Below are positions 1 to 30,215 of a stretch of 32,000 nt of DNA, piece by piece. How positions within the stretch are numbered: position 1 is the first letter of the stretch; every line of letters begins with the position of its first letter. A model generated the notes under the pieces. It was given only the letters and a program-made list of their open reading frames with translations. It had not been told where the DNA came from and made no database searches. Source of the DNA: Idiomarina loihiensis L2TR (GTDB taxonomy: Bacteria > Pseudomonadota > Gammaproteobacteria > Enterobacterales > Alteromonadaceae); assembly GCF_000008465.1 (NCBI RefSeq), contig NC_006512.1:2190001-2222000 (forward strand). Reading direction: 5' to 3'. The translations under genes were made by a program, and so were the position numbers.

Positions 1-908
1 GCCGCGGAACGAGCCCGTAGTATGGGATCTCGGGTTGCCTCAATACCGGTTGGTAACACCAGAGGATCGTAATTTATACCGTGGCATTCACCCTGTAACT
101 GCGGCGTTACCCCGGTAATAACAATTTGTCCCGCTGTAATCTTCTCACGGCTGTCCGGCCATGCTTTTGCTGGATTGTTCTCATCATCTTTCTCATTTGC
201 CAAAGTAAAAACCCAGTCGAAAATGATATTTTCTTTCGCTACCCGGTTGGTAATTTCCTGGTGCAGAGCATCCACACCCTCTAAGTTGTCAGCAGAAACT
301 GAAACCGTCGGCTGCATAGTCCAGCGCACGGCTTGCTTTTCACCGTTTGAATTCACCAGATAAAACGCGTTAATACTGTTATAAGTCTCGGCAGCAAAGC
401 TTCCGCCGGGTTGATATTGCGCTTTCCAGCTTAAAAAGTCACTGCTCTCCGGGTGTTCGGCAAAAAACGTTTGTATTGCTTTGGGGCCTGCCTGAATCGC
501 CTGAATTTGCTGATAAAAAGTATGCGGATCTTTAACCGCCATAACTGGCGGCGTATTCATTGCAATACGCCATTGCTCGGTCGAATTCATGGCAAAGCTC
601 AGAGCTAAACTGCGTACCGGTGCTTTTAAGTCAGGCGCTGTTGGATTATTACCGGCTACCGAAAATCGGCCGATAAAAGACATGGATCCCGTTTCAAATA
701 GTGCCGTTTTTGAATAGCTGGCTAACTGCCCGTTTGAACGAAACTCACCACTAACGCAAATGCCTTTTGCGTGAGCACGCCGAAAGCCTTCATGGGCGGT
801 TTCTCCCTGCTGTAAATTCACAAACTCTTGCGCACTAACTTTGGGGGGATCATCGGCTGCCACGCTCATTATTGGCGCCAACAATAATGCCAGATATTGT
901 TTTTTCAT
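1..908 (-). CDS. catalase-related peroxidase (small catalase-family haem protein), N-terminal 302 codons; the C-terminus lies left of the window
   Basis: Absent from the ORF track because no stop falls inside the window. Hand translation of the minus strand from ATG 908-906 stays open to base 3: MKKQYLALLLAPIMSVAADDPPKVSAQEFVNLQQGETAHEGFRRAHAKGICVSGEFRSNG... It has a signal peptide followed by the FRRAHAKG-x-C block typical of catalase-related (SrpA-like) proteins. Confidence 0.75.
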   Translation of the reverse strand, partial: MKKQYLALLLAPIMSVAADDPPKVSAQEFVNLQQGETAHEGFRRAHAKGICVSGEFRSNGQLASYSKTALFETGSMSFIGRFSVAGNNPTAPDLKAPVRSLALSFAMNSTEQWRIAMNTPPVMAVKDPHTFYQQIQAIQAGPKAIQTFFAEHPESSDFLSWKAQYQPGGSFAAETYNSINAFYLVNSNGEKQAVRWTMQPTVSVSADNLEGVDALHQEITNRVAKENIIFDWVFTLANEKDDENNPAKAWPDSREKITAGQIVITGVTPQLQGECHGINYDPLVLPTGIEATRDPILRARSA

Positions 909-3387: not shown

Positions 3388-4656
3388 ATGATTGAAGGAA
3401 CCAGCCAACAAGACCATATTATTCAGCGTCCAGCGAAAAGCACGCTACGCCGATTTCTCCCTAGCGTCGCCGCTGTCAGTCTTCTGCTTGTGTTGGCAGT
3501 GGCTATTTTTCAGTCGTTTGGACAAAGCGCCAGTTTGACTTTACCGCGTAACCAGATGCAATTCGCCACCGTACAACGTGGCGATTTAGTACGCGACATT
3601 TCAGTGCAAGGTAAAATTGTGGCTGCCAACGCTCCTACGCTGTACAGCCAAGAAATCGGTCAGGTGCAGCTGTTTAAACAGCCCGGTGAAGCTGTAAAAC
3701 AGGGCGATTTACTCGCGACTATCACCAGCCCGGCGCTACAGAATGATTTACAGCAGCAAGAAGCCGTGCTCGCCGGAATGCAAAGCGAAGCCGAGCGCGC
3801 TGAGTTGGCCGCACGCGAGCAGCAATTAGATACTGAACAGGTCATGAATACAGCTCAGGTCAACTTGTTGGCTGCACAGCGTGAGCTGCAACGAGCCCAC
3901 CAAGCCATTGAATTCGGTGTTATCCGACAACTGGATTTCAACATTGCTGAAGACAACCTGGCAACCTCCGAGCTTGAATTCGAGCATGCCAAACGCAAAG
4001 TCGAACTGGCTCGCGATAAGCTGAGCTTTGAACAGAGTTCCCGCGTCCAGTCAATTCACCGCCAGCAACTGGTAGTCGACGAGCTACAACGCAAAGTGAG
4101 GGCTCTCAATATTACCGCTCCTGTCACGGGTCAGCTGGGTAACTGGCTGGTTGAGCAACAAAGCCACGTACTACCGGGACAAGCGCTGTTGACCGTAATT
4201 GATTTAAGCCAGTATGAAGCAGAACTCTCGATCCCGGAAAGCTACGCACGCGATTTGCTAGCCGGGCAAGCAGTGGAAGTGCAATTAGGTCGACAGCAGT
4301 TGCGCGGAGCCATCAGTTACATAGCGCCGGAAGTACGTGACAACCAAGTTAGCGCCCGGGTGCGCTTCAGCGAAGCGGACAGCAGCCAGTTACGCCAAAG
4401 CCAGCGCGTGACCGCCCGCGTGGTTCTGGAACATAAGGAAGATGTACTGATGATTGCCCGCGGTGATTTTGTCAGCTCAGGAGGTGGTCGAGAAGCCTAC
4501 CAGGTTATCGATGATCAGGCCGTGCGTAAACCGGTACAACTCGGAGCACTGTCGGTGCAGTGGGTAGAAATACTTGAGGGTGGCACCGAAGGCGAGCAAT
4601 GGGTGATTTCAAATCTGAGTGAGTTTAAAGGCCAGGACAGGGTCAATCTAAATTAA
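3388..4656 (+). CDS. HlyD-family periplasmic adaptor (MacA-like membrane fusion protein)
   Basis: N-terminal TM anchor, long coiled-coil hairpin region (Q/E/A/L-rich), barrel-sandwich and beta-barrel C-terminus. First gene before the ABC ATPase and FtsX permeases. Confidence 0.8.
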   Translation: MIEGTSQQDHIIQRPAKSTLRRFLPSVAAVSLLLVLAVAIFQSFGQSASLTLPRNQMQFATVQRGDLVRDISVQGKIVAANAPTLYSQEIGQVQLFKQPGEAVKQGDLLATITSPALQNDLQQQEAVLAGMQSEAERAELAAREQQLDTEQVMNTAQVNLLAAQRELQRAHQAIEFGVIRQLDFNIAEDNLATSELEFEHAKRKVELARDKLSFEQSSRVQSIHRQQLVVDELQRKVRALNITAPVTGQLGNWLVEQQSHVLPGQALLTVIDLSQYEAELSIPESYARDLLAGQAVEVQLGRQQLRGAISYIAPEVRDNQVSARVRFSEADSSQLRQSQRVTARVVLEHKEDVLMIARGDFVSSGGGREAYQVIDDQAVRKPVQLGALSVQWVEILEGGTEGEQWVISNLSEFKGQDRVNLN

Positions 4657-4696: not shown

Positions 4697-5395
4697 ATGA
4701 TAACGCTAACAAATTTAAGCAAGATCTTCCGCACTGAGCTCATTGAAACCCATGCGTTGCGCGAGGTGAATTTGCAGGTCAACGAGGGCGAATTTGTCGC
4801 TCTCACCGGCCCTTCCGGTTCAGGCAAGTCAACGCTGTTGAATATTCTAGGCACCCTTGAGGGCTTTGATAGCGGTGACTACTTACTTGATGGGCAATCC
4901 GTAAAAGGCTTGTCGGACTCAGCGCTGTCACAGTTACGCAACGAAAAAATTGGTTTTATCTTTCAAAGTTTTAACTTAATTAAAGACTTCAGTATCTACG
5001 ACAACATCGAGCTGCCTTTACGTTATCGTGGCTTAAAAGCAGCGGAACGCAAACAGCGTATCGAACAAGCATTAGAGCTCGTCGGCCTCCACGCACGACG
5101 TGACTATCTGCCTGCTCAGTTGTCCGGTGGTCAGCAGCAGCGTGTCGCCATCGCTCGCGCAATTGCCGGTCAACCCCGCATTCTGCTTGCCGATGAGCCC
5201 ACCGGTAACCTCGACTCGTTAATGGCTCGTCAGGTTATGGAACTGTTAGAAAAAATTAATCAGCAAGGCTGTACCATTTTAATGGTTACCCACGATCCGG
5301 ATCAGGCTCGCCGTGCTGCCCGCAATATTCAAATTGTCGATGGCCAACTGCATGACAGCACGCTGTACGAGCCACTGGCAGCTCACAGCGCTTAA
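4697..5395 (+). CDS. ABC transporter ATP-binding protein (MacB/LolD-type)
   Basis: Walker A GPSGSGKST, signature LSGGQQQR, Walker B LLADEPTGNLD, H-loop VTHD. Confidence 0.9.
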   Translation: MITLTNLSKIFRTELIETHALREVNLQVNEGEFVALTGPSGSGKSTLLNILGTLEGFDSGDYLLDGQSVKGLSDSALSQLRNEKIGFIFQSFNLIKDFSIYDNIELPLRYRGLKAAERKQRIEQALELVGLHARRDYLPAQLSGGQQQRVAIARAIAGQPRILLADEPTGNLDSLMARQVMELLEKINQQGCTILMVTHDPDQARRAARNIQIVDGQLHDSTLYEPLAAHSA

Positions 5396-5405
5396 AGGAA
5401 AGACT

Positions 5406-6704
5406 ATGGAACAGTTTATTTATTACCTTAAAGTGAGTCTACTCAGCATTAAGCGAGCACCACTACCTTACGCCTTAACCGTTTTTATTCTGAGTGTCGG
5501 CCTGGGCGTATTTTTCGCTAATGCCACTTTCTATTACCAGTTGAACTCTGACCCATTGCCGCACAAAAGCGACAAGCTGTTTTTTCCCATGACATTGATA
5601 ACACCAAACGACTGCAATAACTGTCGCCCTCCCCGAGTGCTTAGTTACAGCAATGTCCAGAAACTGTCAGCAAGTGATATACCTTCCGCTCAGGCGGCTA
5701 TGTATAGCAGCGATGGTTACGCCCGGTTAAGCGTTGACCAGCCACCAACCCCAGTTTCTATACGTATTACCCAACGTGACTTCTTCAAAATGTTTGAGGT
5801 GCCGCTATTACACGGTTCGATGTGGGCCGACGATGAAGCCCACAATGAAGTTTTGCTTACCCGCGCCATGGCATTAAAACTACTCGGTCGTACCGACGTG
5901 GTGGGCGAATCAATACTGCTGGATGACCGCAATGTCAGTGTCATCGGGGTTCTGGATGACTGGCAGATGTTACCGCGCCTATATGATGCGAATGGACGTA
6001 ATCATTTAAGTGCTGGCGAAGACATTTTTCTCCCTCTGGAAACGGGTTACGACCTAAATTATCTGTCTAGAACCAACTCACAAACCTTTGACGATACAGA
6101 CTATCGTCAATTAGCCACGGAAGGTCGAACAGGTGCCTTGCACCAGTTGCAATACTGGGTGCAACTGGATACTGAAGAACAACAGCAAGCTTACAAACAA
6201 TTTATGCAAAGCCTGGCCGAAGACGAAAAAGCAGCGGGTCGCCACCCGGCTCCGATCAATAATCAGCTTGTACCCATGCGTAATATTGTCGACTACTTTG
6301 GGGACGACCCCGGCGATATCAAAGCCTTTGCTCTGGTCACTTTGCTGTTCCTGGTGGTGTGTTTGTTTAATGCCAGTCATTTAGCGCTCAACCGTTATTT
6401 GAGTAATCAATATGAATTTAGCCTGCGCCGGGCGTTGGGGGCCAGCCGTAGCCAGTTACAGTTGCAAATGCTTGCTGATGTGCTTTTGATGACATTCCTT
6501 TCCATTACCGGCGCATTAATTATTGGCTACGCAGGCGTTTCATTAATGAATACGCTACTACCCCGCAATAGCCTGTTCTCTGACTGGAACCTTACCTTAA
6601 TGGCAGGGCTAATGTTGACTGCGTTTTTCTGTAGTTACCTAGTCACTCTGTACCCGTCAATTCGTGCCTCGTTTGGTTCATTGAATCAGCAGTTAAAGGA
6701 ATAA
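5406..6704 (+). CDS. ABC transporter permease, FtsX/MacB-type with large periplasmic domain
   Basis: The track ORF starts at 5313 inside the ATPase gene. ATG 5406 (MEQFIYYLKV) follows AAGGAAAG and the upstream stop. It has an N-terminal TM, a periplasmic domain of about 300 aa, and a C-terminal FtsX-like 3-TM module (RRALGASRSQL). Confidence 0.8.
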   Translation: MEQFIYYLKVSLLSIKRAPLPYALTVFILSVGLGVFFANATFYYQLNSDPLPHKSDKLFFPMTLITPNDCNNCRPPRVLSYSNVQKLSASDIPSAQAAMYSSDGYARLSVDQPPTPVSIRITQRDFFKMFEVPLLHGSMWADDEAHNEVLLTRAMALKLLGRTDVVGESILLDDRNVSVIGVLDDWQMLPRLYDANGRNHLSAGEDIFLPLETGYDLNYLSRTNSQTFDDTDYRQLATEGRTGALHQLQYWVQLDTEEQQQAYKQFMQSLAEDEKAAGRHPAPINNQLVPMRNIVDYFGDDPGDIKAFALVTLLFLVVCLFNASHLALNRYLSNQYEFSLRRALGASRSQLQLQMLADVLLMTFLSITGALIIGYAGVSLMNTLLPRNSLFSDWNLTLMAGLMLTAFFCSYLVTLYPSIRASFGSLNQQLKE

Positions 6705-6709
6705 ACACC

Positions 6710-7903
6710 ATGTCATTACCACTACTTTTCAAAGTATTGCTGACCCGTAAAGTGGTTACCATTTTATTGCTGTTACAGCTGGCTATTACTCTGGCACTCT
6801 TACTCAACAGTGTGCTGCTGGCACAGCAAACGCACCAACAACTGAATCAGCCAACCGGCCTCGATTTGGAAGAGACCCTGTTGGTACAAATAAAACCTAC
6901 CACACCGCAACTTCGGGCGTACCCGCTATTAGAAGATCTGCTGGAACGTCAGCTCAATGCACTGCGGAATATTCCCGGTGTTGTCGCAGCAGCCTATAGC
7001 AATCAGGGCATGCTGCTCCAGGGAGGAAATAATGGCAACGTCTATAATGTCGATGACGAAGAGCGAAGCAACACCTCAAGTGTGCCAATCTACTTCGTCT
7101 CAGCCGACTATTTTAAGGTTCTGGGCGTCGATGTGTTGCAGGGTAGACTTCCACAGCAGTCCAGCCTTTTTACTAAAGAGAGTTTCCCCAGCGTGGTCCT
7201 CACTCAAAGTCTCGCTGAACATCTGTTTCCAGAGCAGTCAGCTGTGGGCCGCCAGCTTAACCGCGGTTCGGTAAGTGCGGTAATAAGTGATTTTTATGGT
7301 CAACGTAATGGTGAGAACGTAATGTATAACAGCATTCAGGTTACCCGTCCCTTCAGCGTAGACTGGGGGTACACATTGTTGCTGAGAACATCGCCCGGTC
7401 AAACCTCAGCTGTTCGCCAACAATTAACCACCGTATTACAGCAGGTCGAACCCAACATCGAAATTTTCCATATTCGGAGCCTTGCCGAGCAGCAGCAACA
7501 GCTCTATCGCAATGAATATGGCCTGGCTACTCTGCTCACTATTCTCAGTGCTTTAATGCTAGTCGTCACCATGATTTCGAGCTACAGCAGTACCCACTTT
7601 CAGGTATTAAAACGCCAGCAGGAAATTGGCATCAAGCGCGCTTTGGGTGCCAGTAAGCGGCTGATTTTTATTGAGCTATTAAGTGAAGGTTGGTTATGTA
7701 CCTTAATCGGTACACTGCTTGGCATCGGTTGCGCGCTGCTTCTCAACCATGGTTTATCACAGGTTATCAGCTTGCCATCACTCAACTGGTGGCTGCCGTT
7801 GTTGACCGGCGCTATTTTGTTATTCTCTGTCACCCTGGCCATATGGTATCCTGCAACCATTGCTACCCGGGTGTCTCCCGCCACTGCTACCAAAGCTTTA
7901 TAA
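6710..7903 (+). CDS. second ABC transporter permease, FtsX/MacB-type
   Basis: Same architecture as the preceding gene; FtsX motif KRALGASKRLIF; AAGGA Shine-Dalgarno before the ATG. Confidence 0.8.
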   Translation: MSLPLLFKVLLTRKVVTILLLLQLAITLALLLNSVLLAQQTHQQLNQPTGLDLEETLLVQIKPTTPQLRAYPLLEDLLERQLNALRNIPGVVAAAYSNQGMLLQGGNNGNVYNVDDEERSNTSSVPIYFVSADYFKVLGVDVLQGRLPQQSSLFTKESFPSVVLTQSLAEHLFPEQSAVGRQLNRGSVSAVISDFYGQRNGENVMYNSIQVTRPFSVDWGYTLLLRTSPGQTSAVRQQLTTVLQQVEPNIEIFHIRSLAEQQQQLYRNEYGLATLLTILSALMLVVTMISSYSSTHFQVLKRQQEIGIKRALGASKRLIFIELLSEGWLCTLIGTLLGIGCALLLNHGLSQVISLPSLNWWLPLLTGAILLFSVTLAIWYPATIATRVSPATATKAL

Positions 7904-7905
7904 CA

Positions 7906-9231
7906 ATGCTTAATATATTGGTTATTGATGACAGTTCATCCATTTGCCAGGCTCTGCAGACGCTGTTTTCTCTGCAGGGCTACCAAGTGTGCTGCGCAAC
8001 AACGCCTGAACAGGCGTGGCAGGTGTTAGGTGAACAACCTATCGATTTGATTCTGCAGGACATGAATTTTTCCGTGGGTGAAATGCAGGGGGATCAAGGA
8101 AAAGCCTTGTTCTACCAATTGCGCCAGCAATATCCTGGCTTGCCTATTGTGTTGATGACGGCCTGGACTCAGTTGGATATGGTAGTCGAGTTGGTGAAAG
8201 CTGGAGCCACCGACTACATTGCCAAACCCTGGGACGATCAGCGTTTATTGCTCACTGTGGCCAATGCGCTCAAGTTAAAGCAGCTAAGCGAGCAACAAGC
8301 GCGTAGAGACGAAGAGCGACAGGCAGCTTTTGCCGACAAAGATCTCTGTGGGCTAGTCTTCGCCAGCAATAAGATGCAGCAATTAGTGCAAATGACATTG
8401 CAGCTCGCCCCGGCTAATGCAGCAGTGCTTATAACCGGCCCCAATGGAGCCGGTAAAGAAGGCATTGCCAACGTGTTGCACGCTAACTCGCCACGTAAAG
8501 ACAAGCCGTTTGTTAAGGTCAACATGGGGGCTCTGCCTGCCGACTTAATGGAAGCTGAACTCTTTGGTGCGGAGGCCGGTGCCTATAGTGGTGCGAACAA
8601 AACTCGTATTGGACGTTTTGAAGCCGCCGATGGTGGCAGTCTATTCCTGGACGAGATTGGTAATTTGTCATTATCCGGCCAGGCCAAGCTACTGCGGGTA
8701 CTGCAAACCGGTGAATATGAACGCCTAGGCTCCAGCGTCACTCGCCGCGTTGATGTCCGCCTAATTAGTGCTACCAATACCGATTTAACTACCGCTATTG
8801 CGCAGGGAGAGTTTCGTCAGGACTTATACTATCGGGTTAATGTGGTGCAACTTGCCCTCCCCGCATTAGCCGAACGCCCGGACGACATTCTGCCACTGGC
8901 ACGTTACTTTCTCGGCGGCGAGAAAAACCTCTCCCACGATGCCGAGCAACTCTTGTTAAGCTACCACTGGCCGGGCAACGTGCGGGAACTGCAGAATGCC
9001 TGCCAACGGGCGCTTTTGCTAAGTAACAACAGCACTATTAACAGCGCCAACTTAGGACTTCCCGATACATCAAGTGCCGGTAAACGCGCATTGGATGATA
9101 TTGACCGAAGCGCTATCGACCAGGCCTTACTGCAAGCTGGTGGCGTCATTTCACGCGCAGCTAAACAACTCGGTATAAGCCGTCAGGCACTGTATCGACG
9201 CATGGAGTTTTACGGTATTGAAACGCCTTAA
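7906..9231 (+). CDS. sigma-54-dependent response regulator (NtrC family: receiver, AAA+, Fis-type HTH)
   Basis: True start is ATG 7906 (MLNILVIDDSSS), directly after stop 7901-7903; the track start 7690 overlaps the permease. Phospho-acceptor LILQDMNF, Walker A GPNGAGKE, GAFTGA-loop variant GAYSGA, Walker B LFLDEIG, WPGNVREL, C-terminal HTH AAKQLGISRQALYRRM. Confidence 0.9.
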   Translation: MLNILVIDDSSSICQALQTLFSLQGYQVCCATTPEQAWQVLGEQPIDLILQDMNFSVGEMQGDQGKALFYQLRQQYPGLPIVLMTAWTQLDMVVELVKAGATDYIAKPWDDQRLLLTVANALKLKQLSEQQARRDEERQAAFADKDLCGLVFASNKMQQLVQMTLQLAPANAAVLITGPNGAGKEGIANVLHANSPRKDKPFVKVNMGALPADLMEAELFGAEAGAYSGANKTRIGRFEAADGGSLFLDEIGNLSLSGQAKLLRVLQTGEYERLGSSVTRRVDVRLISATNTDLTTAIAQGEFRQDLYYRVNVVQLALPALAERPDDILPLARYFLGGEKNLSHDAEQLLLSYHWPGNVRELQNACQRALLLSNNSTINSANLGLPDTSSAGKRALDDIDRSAIDQALLQAGGVISRAAKQLGISRQALYRRMEFYGIETP

Positions 9232-13794: not shown

Positions 13795-13804
13795 AGCAGC
13801 CCCT

Positions 13805-13836
13805 GAATATATGATTTGTATACGAATCATATATTC
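13805..13836. promoter_or_regulatory. near-perfect 32-bp palindrome, putative operator of the ParD-like gene
   Basis: GAATATATGATT (13805-13816) and AATCATATATTC (13825-13836) are exact reverse complements. The spacer TGTATACG contains the GTATAC palindrome. The element lies 11-42 nt upstream of ATG 13794. Confidence 0.5.
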
Positions 13837-13982
13837 AAAATGGGAGTCTTGCAATGTTAGCGCTTATTATGCCTTCTTCTTTTTGCTGAAGTGTTCCATA
13901 CGAAAACAGTAGTAGTATTGTTACTCCAATATTTGGGTTTCATTAAATGTATAGCGCCCCGGCATACTTAGTAAACGCTTGG

Positions 13983-18043: not shown

Positions 18044-19075
18044 CTAAAAATCCTCTTCAGATTTGTCCTCTAACGTATCTATACCTTCCTCTAGTTGAAT
18101 TCTCCGAGCTCGCTTCAATATTGAATTTCCTAGTTTAGTAAGACTCCAATATTCTTCTTTATCATTTACTGAATGCTTTTTCTTAGAGGGTTGCACCAAA
18201 TCTAAAGCGACCAAATCAGCTATCATTCCTTTTATCTTGTTATCTCCTATGGGCCAAGTACGAAACCAATTATTACCAACGTGCTCAAACGCAATTTCTT
18301 TAGCAATGGTTTTGCTGGAACTTTCATTGACTAAAGTTGGGGCGATCATTAAGAATATTTCGAGTAACGTGTTTCTTACTTTCTCAGCATCATCCCAGCG
18401 TCCTTTATCAGATTTTCTTCTTACCTTGAATTTTCTGGTATTGTCATCAAGGATGTGAACCAATCTCTTTTCTTCGTCTGGTTGCTCAATAGTTTTAAAC
18501 CCTTCAATTTTTTTTCTAAGTGTCGAATTCTCAGCACTCAATCTAACCAATTCTTGAGTTGCTTCAGTTGTCGGGGCGTCGGTTGCTCTCACCCAGCCAA
18601 TTCTTGGATTTAGGTTCATAGTTTTCATTAAAGAAATGGAAACTTTCCCATGAAGGTCATCTTTAGATTCCCAAAAATGAACCAATTTAGATTTCACCTT
18701 AGATTTAAAGGCTTCAAGTTTTTTAAGTTTTTTATCTGACTTGTCAATTCTACTTGATGGCCAGGAGGCATCATCGGATATAACAAACCCTAGTGTAGGC
18801 ACTCCTAAAGAGGAAGCATAATCATATTCTTTTTCAGTATAGCTAATGCCATCTTCAGTCTCAGAACCGTATCTGTGCCCAACAATTATTACGTAATAAT
18901 CTGTTTGTTCTATTTGTCTAGCGATAAGCTTCCATTGTTCTTCATCTCCAGCACTAAACATTTCCATTCCAACAGGAATATGCCCCATTTCGAGTACCGC
19001 TTTAATGACCTGCTCTCGTTCTTCTTTCAAATCATCGTAAGTTGAGCTAATAAATACTTGATATTTTTTATTCAT
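18044..19075 (-). CDS. DUF4062 (TIR/nucleoside-deoxyribosyltransferase-like) domain protein with coiled-coil and putative winged-helix C-terminus (paralog A)
   Basis: N-terminus KYQVFISSTYDDLKEEREQVIKAVLEMGHIPVGMEMF...DYYVIIVGHRYGS matches the DUF4062 signature. Central coiled coil QELVRLSAENSTLRKKIEGF. C-terminal ...EEYWSLTKLGNSILKRA. The gene is very AT-rich relative to its flanks. Confidence 0.7.
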   Translation of the reverse strand: MNKKYQVFISSTYDDLKEEREQVIKAVLEMGHIPVGMEMFSAGDEEQWKLIARQIEQTDYYVIIVGHRYGSETEDGISYTEKEYDYASSLGVPTLGFVISDDASWPSSRIDKSDKKLKKLEAFKSKVKSKLVHFWESKDDLHGKVSISLMKTMNLNPRIGWVRATDAPTTEATQELVRLSAENSTLRKKIEGFKTIEQPDEEKRLVHILDDNTRKFKVRRKSDKGRWDDAEKVRNTLLEIFLMIAPTLVNESSSKTIAKEIAFEHVGNNWFRTWPIGDNKIKGMIADLVALDLVQPSKKKHSVNDKEEYWSLTKLGNSILKRARRIQLEEGIDTLEDKSEEDF

Positions 19076-19105
19076 TGTTCCCTCAGTTCGAACAGGAAGT
19101 TAACC

Positions 19106-19134
19106 TTTGTATATTGTGCATGCGCACTTTGTAA
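19106..19134 (-). promoter_or_regulatory. putative sigma-70 promoter with operator palindrome, DUF4062 paralog A
   Basis: Minus strand: TTACAA (19134-19129), 17 nt, TACAAA (19111-19106). The spacer holds TGCGCATGCACA (plus strand 19115-19126), 5/6 arm matches to a TGTGCA|TGCACA palindrome. The same arrangement occurs at 29014-29042. Confidence 0.45.
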
Positions 19135-19411
19135 CTCACTCAATTTCTAATTCTCAGTCTTTAAGCTACTGATACAGAAAATATTTTCATCAAGTAACCA
19201 ACTAAAAAACGAAAGCAATTTAAGCATGCTCATTTCTACTCTAACGGGTGCACAATACCCAACGTTGAATTTCAATTATGTATCTGACATTAAACGAGTT
19301 AATTAGCCGATACAACAATAAATGAGCAATAATACTGATAAAAATGAGCGTTAGGTTAAACTAGAACTAAAGGTAAAATCGTTTCTCAAAAAGCCCTATG
19401 CGAGGCACACC

Positions 19412-21305: not shown

Positions 21306-21653
21306 GTATTGCCTCCCGAAAGCAGGGGCATTAAACGCAGTGAACCCGATAAACGGCTGGTGTTTTTACAAAACTGATATGAGACTTGAACAAGCCAATA
21401 GCACTACGCCTACTAACCCTGCGGATCCAAATTAAAGAAATGAAGATGGATGACAGGTATTAGTTGTTCATTTTGGCGTAGACTCCTTCGGGGGTAATGA
21501 GATTAATTTAGAGTAATTGAAAATGAACCAACTTTCCACTATTCGGCTCTCGAATGAAGTTGCCCCGGCTACTTCTATCTTTACACCTAAAGCGGCAAAA
21601 GTTACTTTAAACTTAAGTTGCCAAAAGGCCGCTAAACCAAAAGACTAAAAAGC

Positions 21654-24201: not shown

Positions 24202-24248
24202 CTTTTTACGTAAATTACGTAAATCTCAAATAAAACAAGGAAGAAAGC

Positions 24249-25112: not shown

Positions 25113-26438
25113 TCAGGCAAAGTCTTTCAGCCTGAGATGCCCCTCTATTGAATCGGTAAGCGCTTTTGGCACCTCATGTTCAGTGGCTAACTCCCGCCAC
25201 TGAGACACCGCGTTAACCACATCATCAATAATGGCATCAATTTCTTTGCGCTCTACCTTGGGTAACTGAACGTCTGCCAGCGCGTAAAAGTCGGCGCGAG
25301 TATGGCCACTGCGCTTGCCATTCAACGACATCCAGTGCTGCTCTACCCAGGGGTTTCCGGGTTTGTAGCTAAAGGCAACGTCGTAAGCCGGGCTCAACCG
25401 CCACTCCTTGTCTTCCAGCATAAAACCAAAGTTCTTGGAGTGATCATCGTGGTTGGTTGCTACGTGGTTAAACACCATACGGCGAAATAAGTCTACAGCG
25501 TCCGCCCGTGGCAACCGCAGCTGGCGGGCAACCTGAAACAGCTCTTCATAAGAAAACGCGCCAATGTCGTGATAGTTCACGTGCTTAATAGCGGTAAGCG
25601 TTTGAATGTGCTTTTTCTCATTGCCTATTCTGTCAAAGCGCTTGGTCACAAAATGGCGGCGGTTGCCTTCATCCAGCAAATGGCATGGCATCATATGAAT
25701 GCCCGCTTTTGTGGCCATTAAGTAATACACATACTCCATAGCACCGTAACCGAGCGGGTCGCCAAAGGTTTGCTGAGATGGGTCGCGCTCTTTTACTCCG
25801 TCAAACTTCAGCAAGTAATGCTCAAAGCCCTCGGGCACAAGCCCCTGCCCTGAACGCACCTGGCTGAAGTCCTTATTAAACGCCAGTACCGCTTTTGGTC
25901 TTGCGCCACCGGCGCTGGTCCCAACCGCTAATAACGCCTGCATCATTTCTTTGTCTGCCGCGTCGTCAAAGTGCGTGCGCTGACGAAAGCCCTTTCGCGC
26001 ATCGAGCACTTCCTGCGCTAATCTCATTAAGCTCTCAAGCTCAATGTCTTTGTTTTTGGCGTTGGTTTGATTCTTACGCGCGGGGTGATACTCAAGAGCG
26101 CCCATGCCCCGCTCGCCGGTATACTGAAGTCGTTCAAGCGGGCTCAGGGGTTCGGTACGATCGGGCTGTTGCGCAACCCATTGGTTCAGTACCGCATTAC
26201 CAAAGTCGTCAGGCAAAGAGTCTGCCAACATACCCGGCAGACCTCTGAAGGTATCCCAATTTAACCCCGGAAAAGAGTAAATTCGTCCCTTCTCGGCAGG
26301 CATAGTTAAAGGCGCCAACGGAATGTTTTTTTCGACAAATTCAGATAAGTACTCGAACCGCGCAGCCGTGTCGCCTTTGTTATAACTTAAGGCACCGACA
26401 GGCTCGCCTTTGTAGCGAACTTCAATGGTATTAATCAC
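25113..26438 (-). CDS. hipA: HipA-family serine/threonine kinase toxin
   Basis: 441 aa, SAGGARPKA P-loop-like motif and catalytic NHDDHSKNFGF. 4-nt overlap with the upstream HTH gene. Confidence 0.9.
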   Translation of the reverse strand: MINTIEVRYKGEPVGALSYNKGDTAARFEYLSEFVEKNIPLAPLTMPAEKGRIYSFPGLNWDTFRGLPGMLADSLPDDFGNAVLNQWVAQQPDRTEPLSPLERLQYTGERGMGALEYHPARKNQTNAKNKDIELESLMRLAQEVLDARKGFRQRTHFDDAADKEMMQALLAVGTSAGGARPKAVLAFNKDFSQVRSGQGLVPEGFEHYLLKFDGVKERDPSQQTFGDPLGYGAMEYVYYLMATKAGIHMMPCHLLDEGNRRHFVTKRFDRIGNEKKHIQTLTAIKHVNYHDIGAFSYEELFQVARQLRLPRADAVDLFRRMVFNHVATNHDDHSKNFGFMLEDKEWRLSPAYDVAFSYKPGNPWVEQHWMSLNGKRSGHTRADFYALADVQLPKVERKEIDAIIDDVVNAVSQWRELATEHEVPKALTDSIEGHLRLKDFA

Positions 26439-26755
26439 CAGTCCAGCTCCTCATTGTCAGCAGGTTTCACACGCGTTTTACCGCTCGCCCGCTTCTTCTG
26501 CTTGGTGCTGCTTTTGAGTAGTTGCACAGGAGAAACGCCCTCGTCCGGGAACGCAGCCAGTAAATTGTCGATATGACCCAAAGCCTGAAGAATTGCGACA
26601 TACGTCGGTAAGGTGCTTTTACCACCCTCCGCGGATTTAACGGCATTCAGTGAGACATTAGCTAAGGTAGCCAAGTCCTCCTGAGTTAAATCCTGGTTCA
26701 GCCGATACTGCCTGACTCGCTGACCAATGATTGATGAAACACGATCAGAATCCAT
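26435..26755 (-). CDS. hipB: HipB-like XRE-family HTH antitoxin
   Basis: IGQRVRQYRLNQDLTQEDLATLANVSLNAVKSAEGG is an HTH. It is translationally coupled to hipA. Confidence 0.8.
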   Translation of the reverse strand: MDSDRVSSIIGQRVRQYRLNQDLTQEDLATLANVSLNAVKSAEGGKSTLPTYVAILQALGHIDNLLAAFPDEGVSPVQLLKSSTKQKKRASGKTRVKPADNEELDW

Positions 26756-26763
26756 ATAACGAA

Positions 26764-26897
26764 CCTTAAATAGGTTTTAAACTGATAATTAGAGTATAGC
26801 AGACTATTTAAGGAACGTAATTATTTTTATACAAAAGGCTTTAAATGGACTATAAATTAGTTAATTCATTTTATAAGCCTTTTAAAGGGCTATAAAA
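26764..26897. promoter_or_regulatory. hipBA upstream region with repeated CCTT-AAA-GG type boxes (putative operators)
   Basis: CCTTAAATAG (26764-26773) and CTATTTAAGG (26804-26813) are exact reverse complements. There are also two 21-nt direct repeats, AGGCTTTAAATGGACTATAAA (26837-26857) and AGCCTTTTAAAGGGCTATAAAA (26876-26897). Confidence 0.4.
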
Positions 26898-26994
26898 AAC
26901 ACTTGAAAGAGGGTTGTTAATAGCACTTGGTTTCGGTATGAATCGATAGTCCTATTTGACTGGCCTTGTTAGAGATATCGAGCTTTCCACAAAG

Positions 26995-27237
26995 CTACTC
27001 TTCGCTGCCCTTCATATACTCTTGATATCTACGACTAGCCTCTTCTTCGCTTATGTCTGGAGTTATTTGTAGAAACTTTTTAGCATATTTTTCAAATGCT
27101 TGAGCTTTGACTTTGGCAACCTCAGACTGAAGCTTAACTTCAACTTTCGCAAGAAGTTTCTGAAGTCGAGCAATTTCTCTTTTTTGTTCTACCACTACTT
27201 GTTTGTAATATCTAACATCGTATTTGTTTTCTTCCAA
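26995..27237 (-). CDS. hypothetical small coiled-coil protein
   Basis: 80-aa charged heptad-rich ORF (REIARLQKLLAKVEVKLQSEVAKVKAQAFEKYAKK). TTG start with GGAG upstream. No family recognised. Confidence 0.4.
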   Translation of the reverse strand: MEENKYDVRYYKQVVVEQKREIARLQKLLAKVEVKLQSEVAKVKAQAFEKYAKKFLQITPDISEEEASRRYQEYMKGSEE

Positions 27238-27324
27238 TGCTGAATCTCCTTTTTGCAGTGGTTGGAGGCTATAGGACTGGCATCTATAACGCCTAGCGCA
27301 TCAGCACGACAAGTACAAGTGCCA

Positions 27325-27885
27325 TTACTTGGCTGCAGATTTAAGTGCCTTGAAGAATGCATCTTGTTCCGGCGCACCCTGGTCGTTATACAGAGCTTTA
27401 TTCATAAGATTTGACCATGTATGAATGACATACCCACCATAGTTTTTTTCTTCAACCAAATCCCTAAGTGAATTTGCACCAAGCATCTTTTTAGCTAATT
27501 CAGTCGCAGCAGATTTCGTAATATGAATTTGTTCCCGATACTTTGTCACGTAAATCTTACTTTTGAATTTGACAGGAACACCAACTACGACAATTTCCTC
27601 ATACGAGGTATGTAAAAACGTTTTATAGACACCATACAGAATGTCCCGGCGGGTACTGGCTCGGATCACATCTGGTAAATCACCAGGAAATATCTGAGTC
27701 GAAAGCTGGATTGTCGGTAGGGTGCCTAAATCGAGAACCTTGAAGGTACCATTTTCTTGACTGTAATCACTTTTGTCACTAATCATCGCACGTATCGAGT
27801 CGTACTGTTTGAGTTCAGCAGAATTAGCTGGCGAAACTGCGAACGCGACAAAAAACACCGTAATGATCAAGTTTGTAAATTTCAT
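27325..27885 (-). CDS. hypothetical secreted protein
   Basis: Signal peptide MKFTNLIITVFFVAFAVSPANSA, GGAGGGG Shine-Dalgarno. It starts 55 nt after the DUF4062-B stop. No family recognised. Confidence 0.55.
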   Translation of the reverse strand: MKFTNLIITVFFVAFAVSPANSAELKQYDSIRAMISDKSDYSQENGTFKVLDLGTLPTIQLSTQIFPGDLPDVIRASTRRDILYGVYKTFLHTSYEEIVVVGVPVKFKSKIYVTKYREQIHITKSAATELAKKMLGANSLRDLVEEKNYGGYVIHTWSNLMNKALYNDQGAPEQDAFFKALKSAAK

Positions 27886-27940
27886 ATTAAACCCCTCCTG
27901 TCCACCGACAGTTCTTGAAGCATCTAACGCTTTGCTAAGC

Positions 27941-28990
27941 TTACTTTAGCAACTCATTCAATATTTTTACTCGCTGCTCCTTTGTAGACTTTAAAACACC
28001 TTTCTCGTAGTTCACATATAGTGGACGTTTATTTTTCACGTAACCTTCTACTCCAAAGCAATATTTTCCAGTGGTGAACATAAGGTGTGGTTCGTTTTCT
28101 TCTACACCAAAATCACTTTCGTAGAAAAGGCCTGTTTCTAATAAGTAATCTACCCACGATTTATTCTCTGGAGTAACAGAGGCGATTTTATTGATCTCTG
28201 TATCTCCAATAAATGCATCAAGTTCTATAGTGATTGGCATCTCGTCGTCCAAGTTAAATATTTCAGCAAAAAACTTTTTAGTATTTGCATAAGTCTCTAT
28301 CTCGCTTATAGATTCCTCTACTTTAGCTTCGTCAGCGCTAGATGAACGATATAAACTCTTAACAAGAGCTTCTAATTTACCATTAGAATCTTTCAAGTTA
28401 CTCAATAAATGATTCGTAGCGTCGATTTGAGTTTTTACTTCTCTAGTTCTCAAAAACTCAAAGAAAAGTCCAGCCCATTGTTTACGTAAATGAACTTCTA
28501 TATCATTGAAATTAGAGAAACCTTCAAAAGCATTATTCACCGGAGAGCGACGAACGTCATCAATAAACTTAAATATATTTTCTGCATCATCCTGTTTTTC
28601 TACCGCAGGGAAATTTATTTTATCAATGAATTTTTGATTTCTATTTTCTCTATATATGTGATGATTATTAAGAACTGAATTTCTTATATATGTGAAAACA
28701 GGAACATTTGCAGCTTTAGCTGCTTCATATTCAGCATTAGTAATAGATTTCGACTTATCTTTAACATACCCACCACCAAATCGACCTCCAATTATTAAAA
28801 TAAAAAGTTGGCAATTTGATACTTCATGTACGCAAGCATCATGAGTATGAAGGTCAGGATGATAGAATACATCTCCATGTTCACTAAGAATTGGATCGAA
28901 ACCAAACGATCTAACGAATTTGTTCAGTTGCTCTCTTACTTCAGATAAATCAAAACACGTAGAGCTGATAAAAACTTTTGGGATAGCCAA
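27941..28990 (-). CDS. DUF4062 (TIR/nucleoside-deoxyribosyltransferase-like) domain protein with coiled-coil and unrelated C-terminal domain (paralog B)
   Basis: N-terminus IPKVFISSTCFDLSEVREQLNKFVRSFGFDPILSEHGDVF...CQLFILIIGGRFGGGY matches the DUF4062 signature. Coiled-coil middle. The C-terminal ~120 aa are unrelated to paralog A. TTG start with GGAG 6 nt upstream. Extremely AT-rich. Confidence 0.7.
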   Translation of the reverse strand: MAIPKVFISSTCFDLSEVREQLNKFVRSFGFDPILSEHGDVFYHPDLHTHDACVHEVSNCQLFILIIGGRFGGGYVKDKSKSITNAEYEAAKAANVPVFTYIRNSVLNNHHIYRENRNQKFIDKINFPAVEKQDDAENIFKFIDDVRRSPVNNAFEGFSNFNDIEVHLRKQWAGLFFEFLRTREVKTQIDATNHLLSNLKDSNGKLEALVKSLYRSSSADEAKVEESISEIETYANTKKFFAEIFNLDDEMPITIELDAFIGDTEINKIASVTPENKSWVDYLLETGLFYESDFGVEENEPHLMFTTGKYCFGVEGYVKNKRPLYVNYEKGVLKSTKEQRVKILNELLK

Positions 28991-29013
28991 TTGCTTCTCC
29001 TTTAAACTTAATA

Positions 29014-29042
29014 TTTATATATTGTGCTTGCACACTTTGTAA
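29014..29042 (-). promoter_or_regulatory. putative sigma-70 promoter with operator palindrome, DUF4062 paralog B
   Basis: Minus strand: TTACAA (29042-29037), 17 nt, TATAAA (29019-29014). The spacer holds TGTGCAAGCACA (plus strand 29023-29034), a 5+5 inverted repeat. It is homologous position by position to 19106-19134. Confidence 0.5.
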
Positions 29043-29375
29043 CTCGTTCAATTGATAGTTATTGGTTCTTAACTTACTGATAAAATGAAAATTCTGATCT
29101 TGAAGCCCTCTGAACAAGAAAAGGCAATTTGAGCATACTCAGTTACACTTTAATGGGCGCACATGTCTAAATTTAATTTTTCTTTATGTGACTGACAATA
29201 AACGACTTAAATGCACAGCACAATAACAAAACGCGCAATATTGTTGAGATAAGCGTGCAGTGCACGGTTAGCGTCATCCACTATTATTAATAACAGGATG
29301 ACTAATCATTAATTGAAGTAGACAAAGAACTTTAAAAATACCAAAGGTGGACTCATAGATGACTAGTGAGAAGTT

Positions 29376-30215
29376 TCAGCGCTGCTCTACCTTGGGTTTT
29401 CCATAAATCCAATCTAAACCTTGCGTTAAGGTCGTTGGAAATGCGGTGGCATGCTTTGCATCCTCGACGATATTGAACTTGAGCGTGACAGATTCACCGG
29501 CTTCGGTAACAATTTTTTCCTTCAGTTTGTTGGCTCCGGCAACCATATCCTGCTTTTCTCCAAACTGCGGACGCTCAAGGCTTCCAACTGATATATAGAC
29601 TTTAATGGGGCTGCGTGATTCATTCGGTTTTAAGCTCAACAAATGATGGTTGTTGAACCAAATTGACGGACTACCAAGCACATAACTACTAAACATAGTT
29701 GGGTGTTTAAACAGTATATAAGCACCGAACAACCCGCCCAACGAGTTTCCCACGTAGGTGCGCTCAGTTGCGCTTACTCGATAATTAGCCGCCATATATG
29801 GAAAAACCACTTCTCGTATGAAAAGCGCGTGCCCCTCAGCATTGCCAGTTGGCAACTTCCAATCATCTGCACGGCTTGGGGTGTAGTCACGAATACGGCT
29901 CGATGCACCTTTCGACCCTTTGGAGTATGACAAGCTGACAATAAAGGCTTCCTCCATTGCTCGACTATTCATCGGGAATCTTGTGGCACCAGAGGCTATT
30001 TGAAAGCTATACATACCATCGGTCAGGTAAATAACGGGGTAGACCTTATCAGTACTAGACCTATATGAGCGCGGCGTCTTAATGAAGACTGGATAGACGA
30101 GTTTACTCGCGGGGTCAGTTAACTCAACTGTCTTGCTTCTGGGGATTTCTACGGCGTCATTGGCGAAGGTTACTGGGCAGAAGATGAATAGGATGAGCAC
30201 CCAAACTAACTTCAT
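29376..30215 (-). CDS. secreted alpha/beta hydrolase (putative esterase family, IroE/Fes-like fold)
   Basis: Signal peptide MKLVWVLILFIFCPVTFA, YPVIYLTDG, nucleophile elbow GNSLGG, GSPSIW. Confidence 0.7.
   Translation of the reverse strand: MKLVWVLILFIFCPVTFANDAVEIPRSKTVELTDPASKLVYPVFIKTPRSYRSSTDKVYPVIYLTDGMYSFQIASGATRFPMNSRAMEEAFIVSLSYSKGSKGASSRIRDYTPSRADDWKLPTGNAEGHALFIREVVFPYMAANYRVSATERTYVGNSLGGLFGAYILFKHPTMFSSYVLGSPSIWFNNHHLLSLKPNESRSPIKVYISVGSLERPQFGEKQDMVAGANKLKEKIVTEAGESVTLKFNIVEDAKHATAFPTTLTQGLDWIYGKPKVEQR

Follow-up and report, generated by a model that had tools for sequence, protein, structure and literature searches.

Proteins with a DUF4062 domain have been described as single-gene abortive-infection systems in which a TIR-like NADase effector is fused to variable sensor tails (10.64898/2026.05.01.722283; 10.64898/2026.06.25.731849; 10.64898/2026.09.04.749371). 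It was only in 2026 that this domain, also named NIR, moved from "unknown function" to an NADase immune effector common to bacteria and human TEP1, and few lineages have been assayed. The catalytic glutamate is E97 in KpSwz, E87 in Eva01, E98 in Vulcan, and E108 in PsAvs2. E97 of KpSwz and E87 of Eva01 are needed for defence (10.64898/2026.05.01.722283; 10.64898/2026.06.25.731849); Eva01 also requires F11, W162, and its AUX region, and NAD+ is depleted on infection (10.64898/2026.06.25.731849). The NIR domains of Avs2, Vulcan, and Vesta deplete NAD+ as well, and NIR genes are found near defence genes more often than expected (20.0% observed versus 3.9% expected) (10.64898/2026.09.04.749371). 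A constant head with a variable tail is a known design, published in 2026.

Here, we describe gene B, which encodes a DUF4062 protein of 349 amino acids (protein B) within a 32,000-nucleotide stretch of Idiomarina loihiensis L2TR DNA, referred to as the window (Table 1). By analogy with the systems above, we think it probable that gene B represents a so far untested lineage within the known DUF4062 (NIR) single-gene anti-phage NADases.

Table 1. Features of the gene B locus and its surroundings (positions are those of the window)
Feature	Position	Strand	Basis or remark
Paralog A, DUF4062	18044-19075		Pfam DUF4062, E 5e-33
Second leader copy, directly 5' of paralog A	19097-19340	minus	Self-BLAST, core match, alignment A9
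hipA	25113-26438	minus	Pfam HipA_C, 6e-51; Couple_hipA
hipB	26435-26755	minus	HTH_31 (Pfam); toxin-antitoxin pair with hipA
80-aa helical ORF	26995-27237	minus	TTG start; intact here
186-aa protein, predicted secretion signal	27325-27885	minus	ORF; putative passenger gene
Gene B, DUF4062 (NIR), 349 aa	27941-28990	minus	TTG start; ORF and Pfam PF13271
Variable C-terminal (AUX) region, residues 216-349	27944-28345	minus	Conservation, dN/dS, AF2
Helical stalk, predicted helices 161-217 and 221-245	28256-28510	minus	AF2 secondary structure
Predicted TIR-like (NIR) catalytic domain, residues ~1-175	28466-28990	minus	AF2 model and Foldseek
Pfam-covered part of head, residues 5-91	28718-28978	minus	PF13271 model
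Glu87 codon, predicted catalytic Glu	28730-28732	minus	Motif S-I-T-N-A-E-Y; invariance and alignment
Conserved noncoding leader 5' of gene B, ~235 nt	29001-29245	minus	Self-BLAST, five-copy alignment A9
Esterase	29376-30215	minus	Pfam Esterase
AAA_13 ATPase, C-terminal 507 of 863 aa	30445 to window end (32000)	minus	Pfam AAA_13

Protein B matches the Pfam DUF4062 profile over the full model (positions 1 to 82), with an E value of 8e-24 and a score of 84 bits, where the cut-off is 24.7. An earlier note on this DNA had proposed that protein B has the same head as paralog A and a C terminus unrelated to it, and both parts of this proposal hold. Pfam recognizes the domain in either protein, and the BLASTP similarity between them (31% identity) is confined to residues 5 to 102 of protein B; a profile comparison gave the same limit, with no detectable similarity between the tails. 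In the AF2 model of protein B (mean pLDDT of 83), the head is predicted to contain five strands of the parallel type (residues 5 to 10, 32 to 35, 62 to 67, 98 to 103, and 152 to 158) with helices between them. A Foldseek search with this model retrieved the TIR domain of RPS4 (E 6.7e-4, probability of 1.0); further matches to the head were the RRS1 TIR domain, TIR-STING, nucleoside deoxyribosyltransferase (NDT), and DNPH1, all likewise with a probability of 1.0, and the TIR-APAZ protein of SPARTA. TIR, TIR-STING, TIR-APAZ, and deoxyribosyltransferase folds ranked at the top of these matches. The TM-scores to canonical TIR folds were modest, at 0.5 to 0.64 (target-normalized). As modeled, the head of protein B has a TIR-like α/β fold. 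The predicted catalytic residue, Glu87, is unchanged in 106 of 106 family members and falls on position E97A in the solved structure of KpSwz (10wc, chain 10wc_A), and the E87-Y88 pair aligns with E87-Y88 of Eva01 (pMW2), the numbering being identical. Phe7 is invariant among the relatives and is aligned to the essential F11 of Eva01, and W172, within R-K-Q-W-A-G, is a possible counterpart of W162 of Eva01, for which no alignment was obtained.

The surroundings of these residues differ from those in characterized DUF4062 proteins. The Q-W-E motif of the latter corresponds to T49-H50-D/E51, which is fixed in the protein B lineage and places His50 at the position of W51, and their T-E-x-E-Y motif corresponds to T-N-A-E-Y, with an invariant Asn85 at the position of E85. 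Five residues, C12, H48, H50, C53, and C60, are invariant or nearly so and specific to the relatives of protein B, and the loop that joins strand B to helix B (residues 36 to 48) is highly conserved and modeled by AF2 with low confidence. Because two motif positions are altered and a lineage-specific set of residues is present, chemistry or regulation in protein B could differ. All of these features would suit a defence protein in which bulk NAD+ hydrolysis is not the task of the head, which might instead make a nucleotide signal, act on another nucleotide, or be controlled by a metal or redox switch. In the same direction, TIR domains of other systems, such as Thoeris, produce signaling nucleotides. 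The discussion by the Swarozyc authors also allows for DUF4062 mechanisms that are more complex than NADase activity (10.64898/2026.05.01.722283). Nevertheless, such a head seems unlikely, as neither the catalytic Glu-Tyr pair nor Phe7 has been lost from protein B, the gene has no conserved neighbor that could read a signal, and all DUF4062 domains assayed to date, bacterial as well as that of human TEP1, yield ADP-ribose and nicotinamide according to the three preprints cited above. An NADase that is gated by metal or redox state through the lineage-specific Cys/His cluster is less likely than the reading of the leader that is given below.

The coiled-coil middle described in the earlier note agrees with the two long helices that AF2 predicts there. 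Between protein B and an ortholog with 87% identity (L001), no non-synonymous difference was found within residues 161 to 215, at a dS of ~1.25. Head and stalk together have a dN/dS of 0.015, indicating very strong purifying selection, whereas the tail, with a dN/dS of 0.16, evolves about ten times faster; mean family identity to protein B is 70% for residues 1 to 215 and 28% for the tail. A frozen head and stalk combined with a fast tail is the pattern that a fusion of an effector with a diversifying sensor would be expected to show. The tail contains a compact α/β domain (approximately residues 257 to 348), and AF2 models the tail alone with a pLDDT of 89.5 and a pTM of 0.84. Foldseek searches with it gave nothing significant in the PDB (best E of 0.83) or in BFVD, and phmmer retrieved only 2 matches among 1.84 billion representatives. 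Pfam annotates no domain in the tail. Since no fold relative is recognizable, the tail is presumed to be a phage sensor by analogy.

The reading that we favor is that gene B probably serves on its own as an abortive-infection system of the DUF4062 (NIR) type. If it works as its homologues KpSwz, Eva01, Vulcan, and PsAvs2 do, the N-terminal ~175 residues would act as a TIR-like NAD+ glycohydrolase with Glu87 as the catalytic residue, and the strictly conserved stalk (residues 161 to 245) would keep protein B in an autoinhibited oligomer. The fast-evolving α/β domain may recognize a phage-derived protein or structure. Binding of this trigger would shift the stalks so that the TIR-like heads come together in an active form, and the infected cell would be stopped prior to the release of phage progeny.

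The distribution of gene B is patchy and horizontal across phyla. Homologues of its product form more than 1100 clusters across the Proteobacteria, Bacteroidota, and other groups, and full-length relatives with 47 to 93% identity occur in many genera. Compared with the 87% ortholog, DNA similarity is limited to positions 27932 to 29027, that is, to the gene and ~37 nt upstream. In Vibrio vulnificus, a Zot-type filamentous prophage carries a relative at its end, in two different chromosomal contexts, and when one genome was scanned for each species, the matches included no contig from I. loihiensis. This prophage carriage, the low G+C content, and the result of the per-species scan indicate horizontal mobility, and the short extent of the DNA similarity and the stand-alone organization of relatives indicate that gene B is a self-contained single-gene unit. 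No full-length relative was present among 72,556 plasmids, where the nearest matches were from Enterococcus (28% identity, residues 4 to 197 only), and none was found in Escherichia coli genomes in a DNA-level search. The sole matches in phages were two "Acinetobacter phage" records that resemble bacterial contigs, and PADLOC 2023 contained no model matching protein B.

As proposed in the earlier note, gene B lies between hipBA and an esterase gene plus an AAA_13 ATPase gene; the Pfam assignments confirm this, and the AAA_13 protein, whose full-length gene is present in L039, matches the PADLOC candidate PDC-S06 (E 1.5e-194). A defence-island-like setting is supported. Some loci with relatives of gene B also neighbor defence genes (PDC-S35, PDC-S66, TIR proteins, HerA/SIR2, Drt4, and methyltransferases), and known defence genes adjoin only a few of 38 such loci. 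The G+C content of gene B is 33.6%, compared with 45.4% for the whole window. With regard to composition, the note was correct that positions 28621 to 28680 contain exactly 20% G+C, but its value of 55 to 60% for the efflux operon was too high: the average there is 49.4%, and the highest 500-nt window reaches 55.4%. The hipBA pair (positions 25113 to 26755; 51% G+C) is an independent neighboring unit. Inspection by eye showed palindromes of the CCTTTAAAAGG type within the 239 nt that precede hipB.

A non-immune role for gene B, either as a housekeeping or stress nucleotide enzyme or as a selfish, toxin-like addiction module of mobile elements, could be read from the ordinary metabolic neighbors (acetyltransferases, amidases, and oxidoreductases) at many of the 38 homologous loci, from the proximity of hipBA in the window, and from the finding that Eva02 was not protective in reported assays (10.64898/2026.06.25.731849). 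We judge such a role to be quite improbable, considering the patchy, cross-phylum distribution, the base composition atypical for the host, the carriage of relatives on prophages, and the fast-evolving tail beside a nearly frozen head. In addition, no antitoxin-like cognate neighbor recurs, and NIR genes overall are enriched beside defence systems (10.64898/2026.09.04.749371).

Two explanations for the architecture of the region were considered and set aside. An integron cassette array might explain why small genes follow one another on the same strand here and in the Idiomarina sequence L045, but no attC-like series was found. A crude search by pattern and folding (R''/R' boxes RYYYAAC ... 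GTTRRRY forming an imperfect hairpin) through the window, L045, and L001 gave scattered and mostly intragenic matches, none of them at the ends of island genes, and there was no VCR-like repeat family. Neither tRNA genes nor tandem repeats mark island borders, as the window contains no tRNA gene and the only tandem repeat between 24 and 32 kb is a trivial 19-nt repeat at 24206 to 24224.

The genes for the 186-aa and 80-aa proteins follow gene B on the same strand, with gaps of 55 nt and 87 nt, and AGGAG or AGGAGG boxes are present 6 to 9 nt ahead of all three starts, so the coordinates, spacing, and ribosome-binding sites were all as the earlier note had given them. Its description of the 186-aa product as a signal-peptide protein also seems apt, since the N terminus (MKFTNLIITVFFVAFAVSPANS/AE) reads by eye as a Sec signal. 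Because its dN/dS is 0.15, the 186-aa ORF appears to be a real coding gene; nothing above the cut-off was found for its product in Pfam, PADLOC, or NCBIfam. The 80-aa ORF gave only sub-threshold, coiled-coil-type matches in Pfam and no match in phages.

From this arrangement, the note had suggested that the two small proteins may be partners of protein B, that is, that a three-gene operon encodes the DUF4062 protein together with a secreted 186-aa and an 80-aa coiled-coil protein, for instance as sensor, effector, and regulator. Besides the close spacing and good ribosome-binding sites, it could be said in favor of such an operon that no terminator-like site was found between the three ORFs, that the trio is kept intact in all six Idiomarina contigs that encode an identical 349-aa protein, and that Vesta shows that two-gene DUF4062 systems exist (10.64898/2026.09.04.749371). 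Synteny largely refutes it. In tblastn searches, neither small gene was present at any of the 38 relative loci, which come from other genera and span many phyla, the 87% ortholog included, and this was the co-occurrence check that the note had asked for. No neighbor family recurs at these loci, with no neighbor cluster in more than two of them, and among the 34 loci with callable genes, at least 11 have a next downstream gene that is encoded on the other strand. A multigene, Vesta-type DUF4062 operon, for which a conserved partner would be expected, was rejected on the same counts. Among 5.8 billion proteins, the 186-aa protein forms only three 90%-identity clusters, and the named cluster and the traced contigs are from Idiomarina. 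In other Idiomarina genomes, a 91%-identical copy follows a 175-aa gene that is unrelated to gene B, a DUF4062 gene is absent from the vicinity, and a 147-aa gene stands there between the 186-aa gene and the homologue of the 80-aa ORF. That homologue is a pseudogene (76% identity by tblastn to L045 to L048, with a frameshift in the N-terminal part and an in-frame stop). Moreover, a Sec-exported protein would be an improbable partner of a cytoplasmic NADase, and the G+C contents are unequal, at 40.5% for the 186-aa gene and 36.2% for the 80-aa gene compared with that of gene B. A functional operon of the three genes is therefore very improbable indeed.

Read-through co-transcription of the three genes is likely, and the upstream similarity of the 186-aa gene to the copy in other Idiomarina genomes begins only 17 nt before the start codon; for these reasons, we regard the two small genes as probable passengers. 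By the sequence comparisons, they are an Idiomarina-specific block outside the gene B system. At this locus, adjacency and probable co-transcription are no sign of functional partnership, which corrects a tempting operon call.

Gene B and paralog A are each preceded by a copy of a noncoding leader. Self-BLAST of the window aligned positions 29005 to 29210 with 19097 to 19302 at 71.5% identity, and an exact 32-nt core occurs 2 times in the window versus 0.00 expected. The ends of the leader carry inverted TATTGTGC motifs, the inverted-repeat pairing of which is conserved in four copies; these motifs are practically confined to leader copies, with a few scattered single matches at approximately the chance rate. 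The copy at gene B also contains an operator-like palindrome, TGTGCAAGCACA, at positions 29023 to 29034. In Idiomarina, the leader is located 15 to 40 nt ahead of the start codon, in constant orientation, at no fewer than five unrelated units of accessory genes, namely, DUF4062-A, DUF4062-B, a pair of 191-aa and 325-aa genes, a DUF5677 gene, and a gene with weak HEPN-like similarity. The core of the leader, ~40 nt in length, is made up of a TGYGC..GCRCA palindrome, ATATA, and TGTTAAC, in this order, and DUF4062 genes of Hahella, Vibrio, Oceanospirillaceae, and Methylicorpusculum likewise have it upstream. We tentatively raise the possibility, itself rather doubtful, that the leader is a portable promoter-operator or recombination module through which Idiomarina captures and co-regulates defence genes. 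If so, it would be a shared "defence regulon" leader; its presence at such genes hints at their common regulation or acquisition.

Other identities of the leader were rejected. A structured or known RNA finds no support in a folding z-score of -0.11 and the lack of any Rfam match in the element, the sole match between 15 and 32 kb being at chance level (positions 21588 to 21636; E 0.88); the consensus fold shows nothing beyond the inverted repeat at the termini and a pair of short hairpins. Neither is the leader part of an IS110-family element or its bridge RNA, as the insertion sequence in L045 has inverted ends of its own (GGACGCTCCC at 1517 and GGGAGCGTCC at 2825). Since this insertion sequence separates a leader copy from the ATG of the gene that follows, the leader is rather its target or a bystander. 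No distal inverted partner was found that would make the leader the end of a larger transposon.

Taken together, gene B belongs to a widespread lineage with a sensor tail that has no detectable structural relative and with altered active-site surroundings, and it resembles each of the described systems in part. With canonical TIR NADases (SARM1, ThsB, the TIR-APAZ protein of SPARTA, and TIR-STING), protein B has the predicted fold class and the catalytic Glu in common, and activation by oligomerization is proposed for it as well; however, these are separate sequence families, and according to the preprints, DUF4062 clusters apart from them. Similar to Vulcan (NIR plus HEAT repeats) and NIR-Avs2, protein B carries its effector domain at the N terminus of a single sensor protein, and abortive-infection logic is proposed likewise, but it is without a HEAT, TPR, or STAND NTPase module and has a tail formed by an α/β domain of ~100 residues. 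Vesta consists of VstA, a small NIR protein that, like protein B, has an uncharacterized C-terminal domain, and the alkaline phosphatase VstB, encoded in an operon with VstA and dispensable for defence. No phosphatase is encoded near gene B, and its downstream genes are not conserved with the family.

In the broad sense, gene B has the architecture of an Evangelion, combining a single-gene DUF4062 core with a diversified, unannotated C-terminal region. Protein B is only 25% identical to Eva01 of the Staphylococcus aureus plasmid pMW2 (WP_000072390.1) over ~100 residues, with nothing beyond, and it lacks the full motif set of the Eva01 lineage (F11, Q/W/E, acidic-SYT with E87-Y88, and W162): Q50-W51-E52 of Eva01 aligns to T49-H50-D51, and the acidic residue before the Glu is replaced by Asn85. 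Eva01 is, furthermore, plasmid enriched, in contrast to the gene B family. In Swarozyc (KpSwz of Klebsiella pneumoniae; PDB 10wc, 11cq, and 11cv), an auxiliary domain of the HTH/winged type binds the phage portal. KpSwz and protein B both have a DUF4062 head, helical stalks, which are similar by description (10.64898/2026.05.01.722283), and a C-terminal auxiliary domain, and both systems are single polypeptides with a defence-island setting and horizontal spread. However, KpSwz matches the B-family profile in the head only (E 0.03, residues 5 to 102), with no homology detected in the stalk or auxiliary domain; its motifs are Q-W-E and T-E-K-E-F rather than T-H-D/E and T-N-A-E-Y. The match of KpSwz to paralog A, on the other hand, extends over residues 2 to 259 (E 1e-44), which makes paralog A a true Swarozyc relative. 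The presence of a Swarozyc-type paralog A and gene B in one small genome offers a natural comparison for complementary phage coverage by the two tails.

Island B of the earlier note, with the second DUF4062 gene of the window (here referred to as B) and two ORFs behind it, is real. The three minus-strand ORFs lie where they had been placed, with gaps of 55 and 87 nt between them and an AGGAG-type ribosome-binding site before each, in agreement with the short spacing and good sites described. Pfam DUF4062 matches residues 5-91 of B with 84 bits and paralog A, the other DUF4062 protein of the window, with 114 bits. The two proteins can be aligned over residues 5-102 alone (31% identity), a limit also given by profile comparison, and the tail of B is indeed unrelated to A. 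The description of a constant head with a swapped tail is correct because three 2026 preprints establish a DUF4062 head with a variable auxiliary region; this design has already been published. An identical protein is annotated as "DUF4062 domain-containing protein" in Idiomarina loihiensis (chromosome CP005964.1, GCA_000401175.1). The hand-counted G+C content of 20% at 28621-28680 was exact, and gene B as a whole has 33.6%, compared with 45.4% for the window; the 55-60% quoted from single lines of the efflux operon exceeds the operon average of 49.4%. Pfam searches confirmed hipBA, the esterase and the AAA_13 ATPase as neighbors.

The idea that the 186-aa and 80-aa ORFs are partners of B was rejected by synteny: tblastn with both proteins detected no homologs in 38 loci encoding B relatives, including the locus of an 87%-identical ortholog in an Oceanospirillaceae MAG (L001). 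The gene following B relatives is on the opposite strand in many loci, with gaps mostly of >100 nt, and clustering of the neighbors revealed no family recurring in more than two loci. The 186-aa protein is represented by three clusters among 5.8 billion sequences, with the named cluster and the traced contigs being from Idiomarina; genomes of other Idiomarina have a copy with 91% identity behind an unrelated 175-aa gene, in a locus without DUF4062, and a 147-aa gene lies between this copy and the 80-aa homolog. A dN/dS of 0.15 marks the 186-aa gene as genuinely coding. The 80-aa ORF is intact in the window, and its homologs in four other Idiomarina loci (L045 to L048; e.g., L045 7163-7413) have a frameshift in the N-terminal part and an in-frame stop. 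A three-gene system is thus not supported. Read-through transcription from B into the downstream ORFs is plausible, since the similarity between the window and L045 starts just 17 nt ahead of the start codon of the 186-aa gene and no terminator-like site was found between the three ORFs, but it would reflect a mosaic junction and not a functional unit. Island B is composed of the distinct pieces listed in the table, which differ in history and in G+C content. Several CCTTTAAAAGG-type palindromes, seen by eye upstream of hipB (26756-26994), are probably HipB operators. The L045 island, home of the other 186-aa copy, also encodes an SLFN/AlbA_2 protein and a strong homolog of an Argonaute-associated nuclease (7784-8626; PADLOC Aga_Nuclease, E value of 5e-97); the fetched stretch has no gene for Argonaute itself.

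Coordinates of the features discussed (window positions unless a fetched locus, L, or protein residues are named)
Feature	Location	Strand	Remark
Island B, piece 1: leader and gene B	B, 27941-28990	-	
Island B, piece 2: block of 186-aa and 80-aa genes	27325-27885; 26995-27237	-	
Island B, piece 3: hipBA	hipB, 26435-26755; hipA, 25113-26438		own palindrome-rich upstream region
Paralog A	18044-19075	-	
AAA_13 ATPase, 863 aa	30445-32000; full gene, L039 3955-6546	-	PADLOC PDC-S06
Leader copy	29001-29245	-	5' of B
Leader copy	19097-19340	-	5' of A
Leader copy	L039 ~3420-3665	-	same strain, just past window end; before 191-aa and 325-aa pair
Leader copies	L045 196-416 and 1349-1508		other Idiomarina; before DUF5677 gene and 231-aa gene
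40-nt core copies	L033 6943-6983; L023 96-130; L031 6928-6961; L032 116-161; L001 6953-6990		
B, alpha/beta domain	up to ~residue 160		five strands; AlphaFold2 prediction
B, two long helices	residues 161-217 and 221-245		AlphaFold2 prediction
B, compact alpha/beta domain	residues 257-348		AlphaFold2 prediction

DNA similarity between the window and the L001 locus is limited to 27932-29027, and the transferred unit is therefore essentially gene B alone. In Vibrio vulnificus (L052 and L053; gene at 5001-6050), a 53%-identical family member ends an integrated Zot-type filamentous prophage (DUF1293, DUF2523, Zot), which occupies two different chromosomal contexts. A one-genome-per-species scan for B relatives returned no I. 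loihiensis contig, which suggests that gene B may vary between strains. When known or candidate defense genes were scored in the 34 loci with callable genes, a few were located within two genes of B relatives (PDC-S35, PDC-S66, TIR proteins, HerA plus SIR2, Drt4 and methyltransferases); ordinary genes were also numerous at this distance. The AAA_13 ATPase gives a match to PDC-S06, a candidate single-gene defense system of PADLOC (E value of 1.5e-194); with this ATPase, hipBA and two DUF4062 genes, the region constitutes a small defense island adjoining gcvP. One 417-aa B relative is on a contig named 'Acinetobacter phage MD-2021a' (L051, CAKLQF020000019.1), where it is flanked by fabG, a nitroreductase gene and entF; the record resembles a piece of bacterial chromosome deposited as a phage.

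The sole feature here that could prove new is the shared leader, a noncoding element of ~235 nt. A self-comparison of the window showed that ~205 nt directly upstream of B (29005-29210) and of A (19097-19302) are 71.5% identical, whereas no DNA-level alignment is possible between the two genes. A 32-nt leader core has exactly two occurrences in the window, with 0.00 expected. The five leader copies, two before the DUF4062 paralogs and three before other, unrelated accessory gene units of Idiomarina, all point the same way and stop 15 to 40 nt before a start codon. The leader has three TATTGTGC motifs. Inverted TATTGTGC motifs mark its two ends, and the pairing of these motifs is preserved in four of the copies; an operator-like palindrome, located ~44 nt ahead of the start codon and followed by an ATATA-type box, reads TGTGCAAGCACA in the window and has a perfect form, ATTGTGCGCGCACAAT, in L039. 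In L045, the 231-aa gene, which has weak HEPN-like similarity, is cut off from its leader copy by an IS110-family element (1517-2834; transposase, 1581-2606; inverted ends GGACGCTCCC and GGGAGCGTCC) inserted exactly between the leader and the ATG. The leader matched no Rfam family and its folding energy is not unusual; it was absent from the viral contig collection, and the exact core was found in one metagenomic contig only. It could be a portable promoter-operator, a MITE with an outward-facing promoter or a recombination site. The 40-nt core at its 3' end, and not the whole leader, also occurs upstream of DUF4062 genes in Hahella, Vibrio breoganii, Methylicorpusculum and two Oceanospirillaceae MAGs, with a TGYGC..GCRCA palindrome followed by ATATA and TGTTAAC/TGTTAGC, and a sequence-only model built from the core copies found one further copy outside the training set (E value of 0.03). 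The recurrence of the core at these sites suggests that it is a conserved promoter or operator travelling with DUF4062 genes. The self-comparison also revealed a near-perfect (94%) intergenic palindrome of 34 nt at 13804-13837.

The B family comprises 1122 clusters at an E value of ≤0.001. Full-length relatives with 47 to 93% identity are present in Vibrio, Aeromonas, Pseudoalteromonas, Marinomonas, Massilia, Janthinobacterium, Undibacterium and Bacteroidales, and none were found on plasmids or in E. coli genomes; family loci also occur in Arcobacteraceae, Flavobacteriia and Spirochaetia and more distant relatives in Firmicutes. Mean identity to B across the family is 70% for residues 1-215 and 28% for residues 216-349. 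Between B and its L001 ortholog, dS is ~1 throughout, with dN/dS values of 0.015 for head and stalk and 0.16 for the tail, and residues 161-215 have no nonsynonymous changes. More distant relatives resemble B up to about residues 185-290, beyond which they have a different tail. The AlphaFold2 model (106-sequence alignment) has a mean pLDDT of 83, and its best structural matches are TIR domains (RPS4, E value of 6.7e-4), TIR-STING, SPARTA TIR-APAZ, nucleoside deoxyribosyltransferase and DNPH1, a fold neighborhood also reported in the NIR preprint (10.64898/2026.09.04.749371). Modeled alone, the tail was predicted confidently (pLDDT, 89.5; pTM, 0.84), with no significant match in the PDB (best E value, 0.83) or among viral predicted structures, and a sequence search of 1.84 billion representatives retrieved just two fragments.

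Osinski et al. described DUF4062 as a TIR-like NADase and Swarozyc (KpSwz) as a single-gene system in which a head is combined with helical stalks and an HTH/winged auxiliary domain; the system is activated by a phage portal protein and acts by abortive infection via E97 (10.64898/2026.05.01.722283). The Evangelion systems of Ibarra-Chavez et al. are likewise single genes, in which the DUF4062 core is conserved and an essential auxiliary (AUX) region has diversified, and Eva01 requires F11, E87 and W162 (10.64898/2026.06.25.731849). Le Mouellic et al. renamed the domain NIR, identified it as the effector of Avs2, Vulcan (NIR plus HEAT repeats) and Vesta (NIR plus a dispensable phosphatase) and found 20.0% of NIR genes near defense systems, compared with 3.9% expected (10.64898/2026.09.04.749371). 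In the 106-sequence alignment of the B family, F7 and E87 (in the motif S-I-T-N-A-E-Y) are invariant; E87 corresponds in alignments to the catalytic residue mutated in the solved E97A structure of KpSwz and to the E87-Y88 pair of Eva01 (sequence from pMW2). C12, H48, H50, C53 and C60 are invariant or nearly so in the B lineage. The Q-W-E of characterized members is replaced by T49-H50-D/E51 and their T-E-x-E-Y by T-N85-A-E-Y, both fixed across this lineage. Paralog A is clearly homologous to KpSwz (E value of 1e-44, residues 2-259), whereas B matches KpSwz in the head alone (E value of 0.03) and hence is not a Swarozyc relative; its likeness to Eva01 is remote (25% identity across ~100 residues). 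One genome therefore has a Swarozyc-type gene and a distinct second DUF4062 lineage ~10 kb apart. B fits the broad definition of a DUF4062 core plus AUX while falling outside every named lineage compared, and it is best explained as a candidate lineage of this defense family, the first descriptions of which date from 2026.
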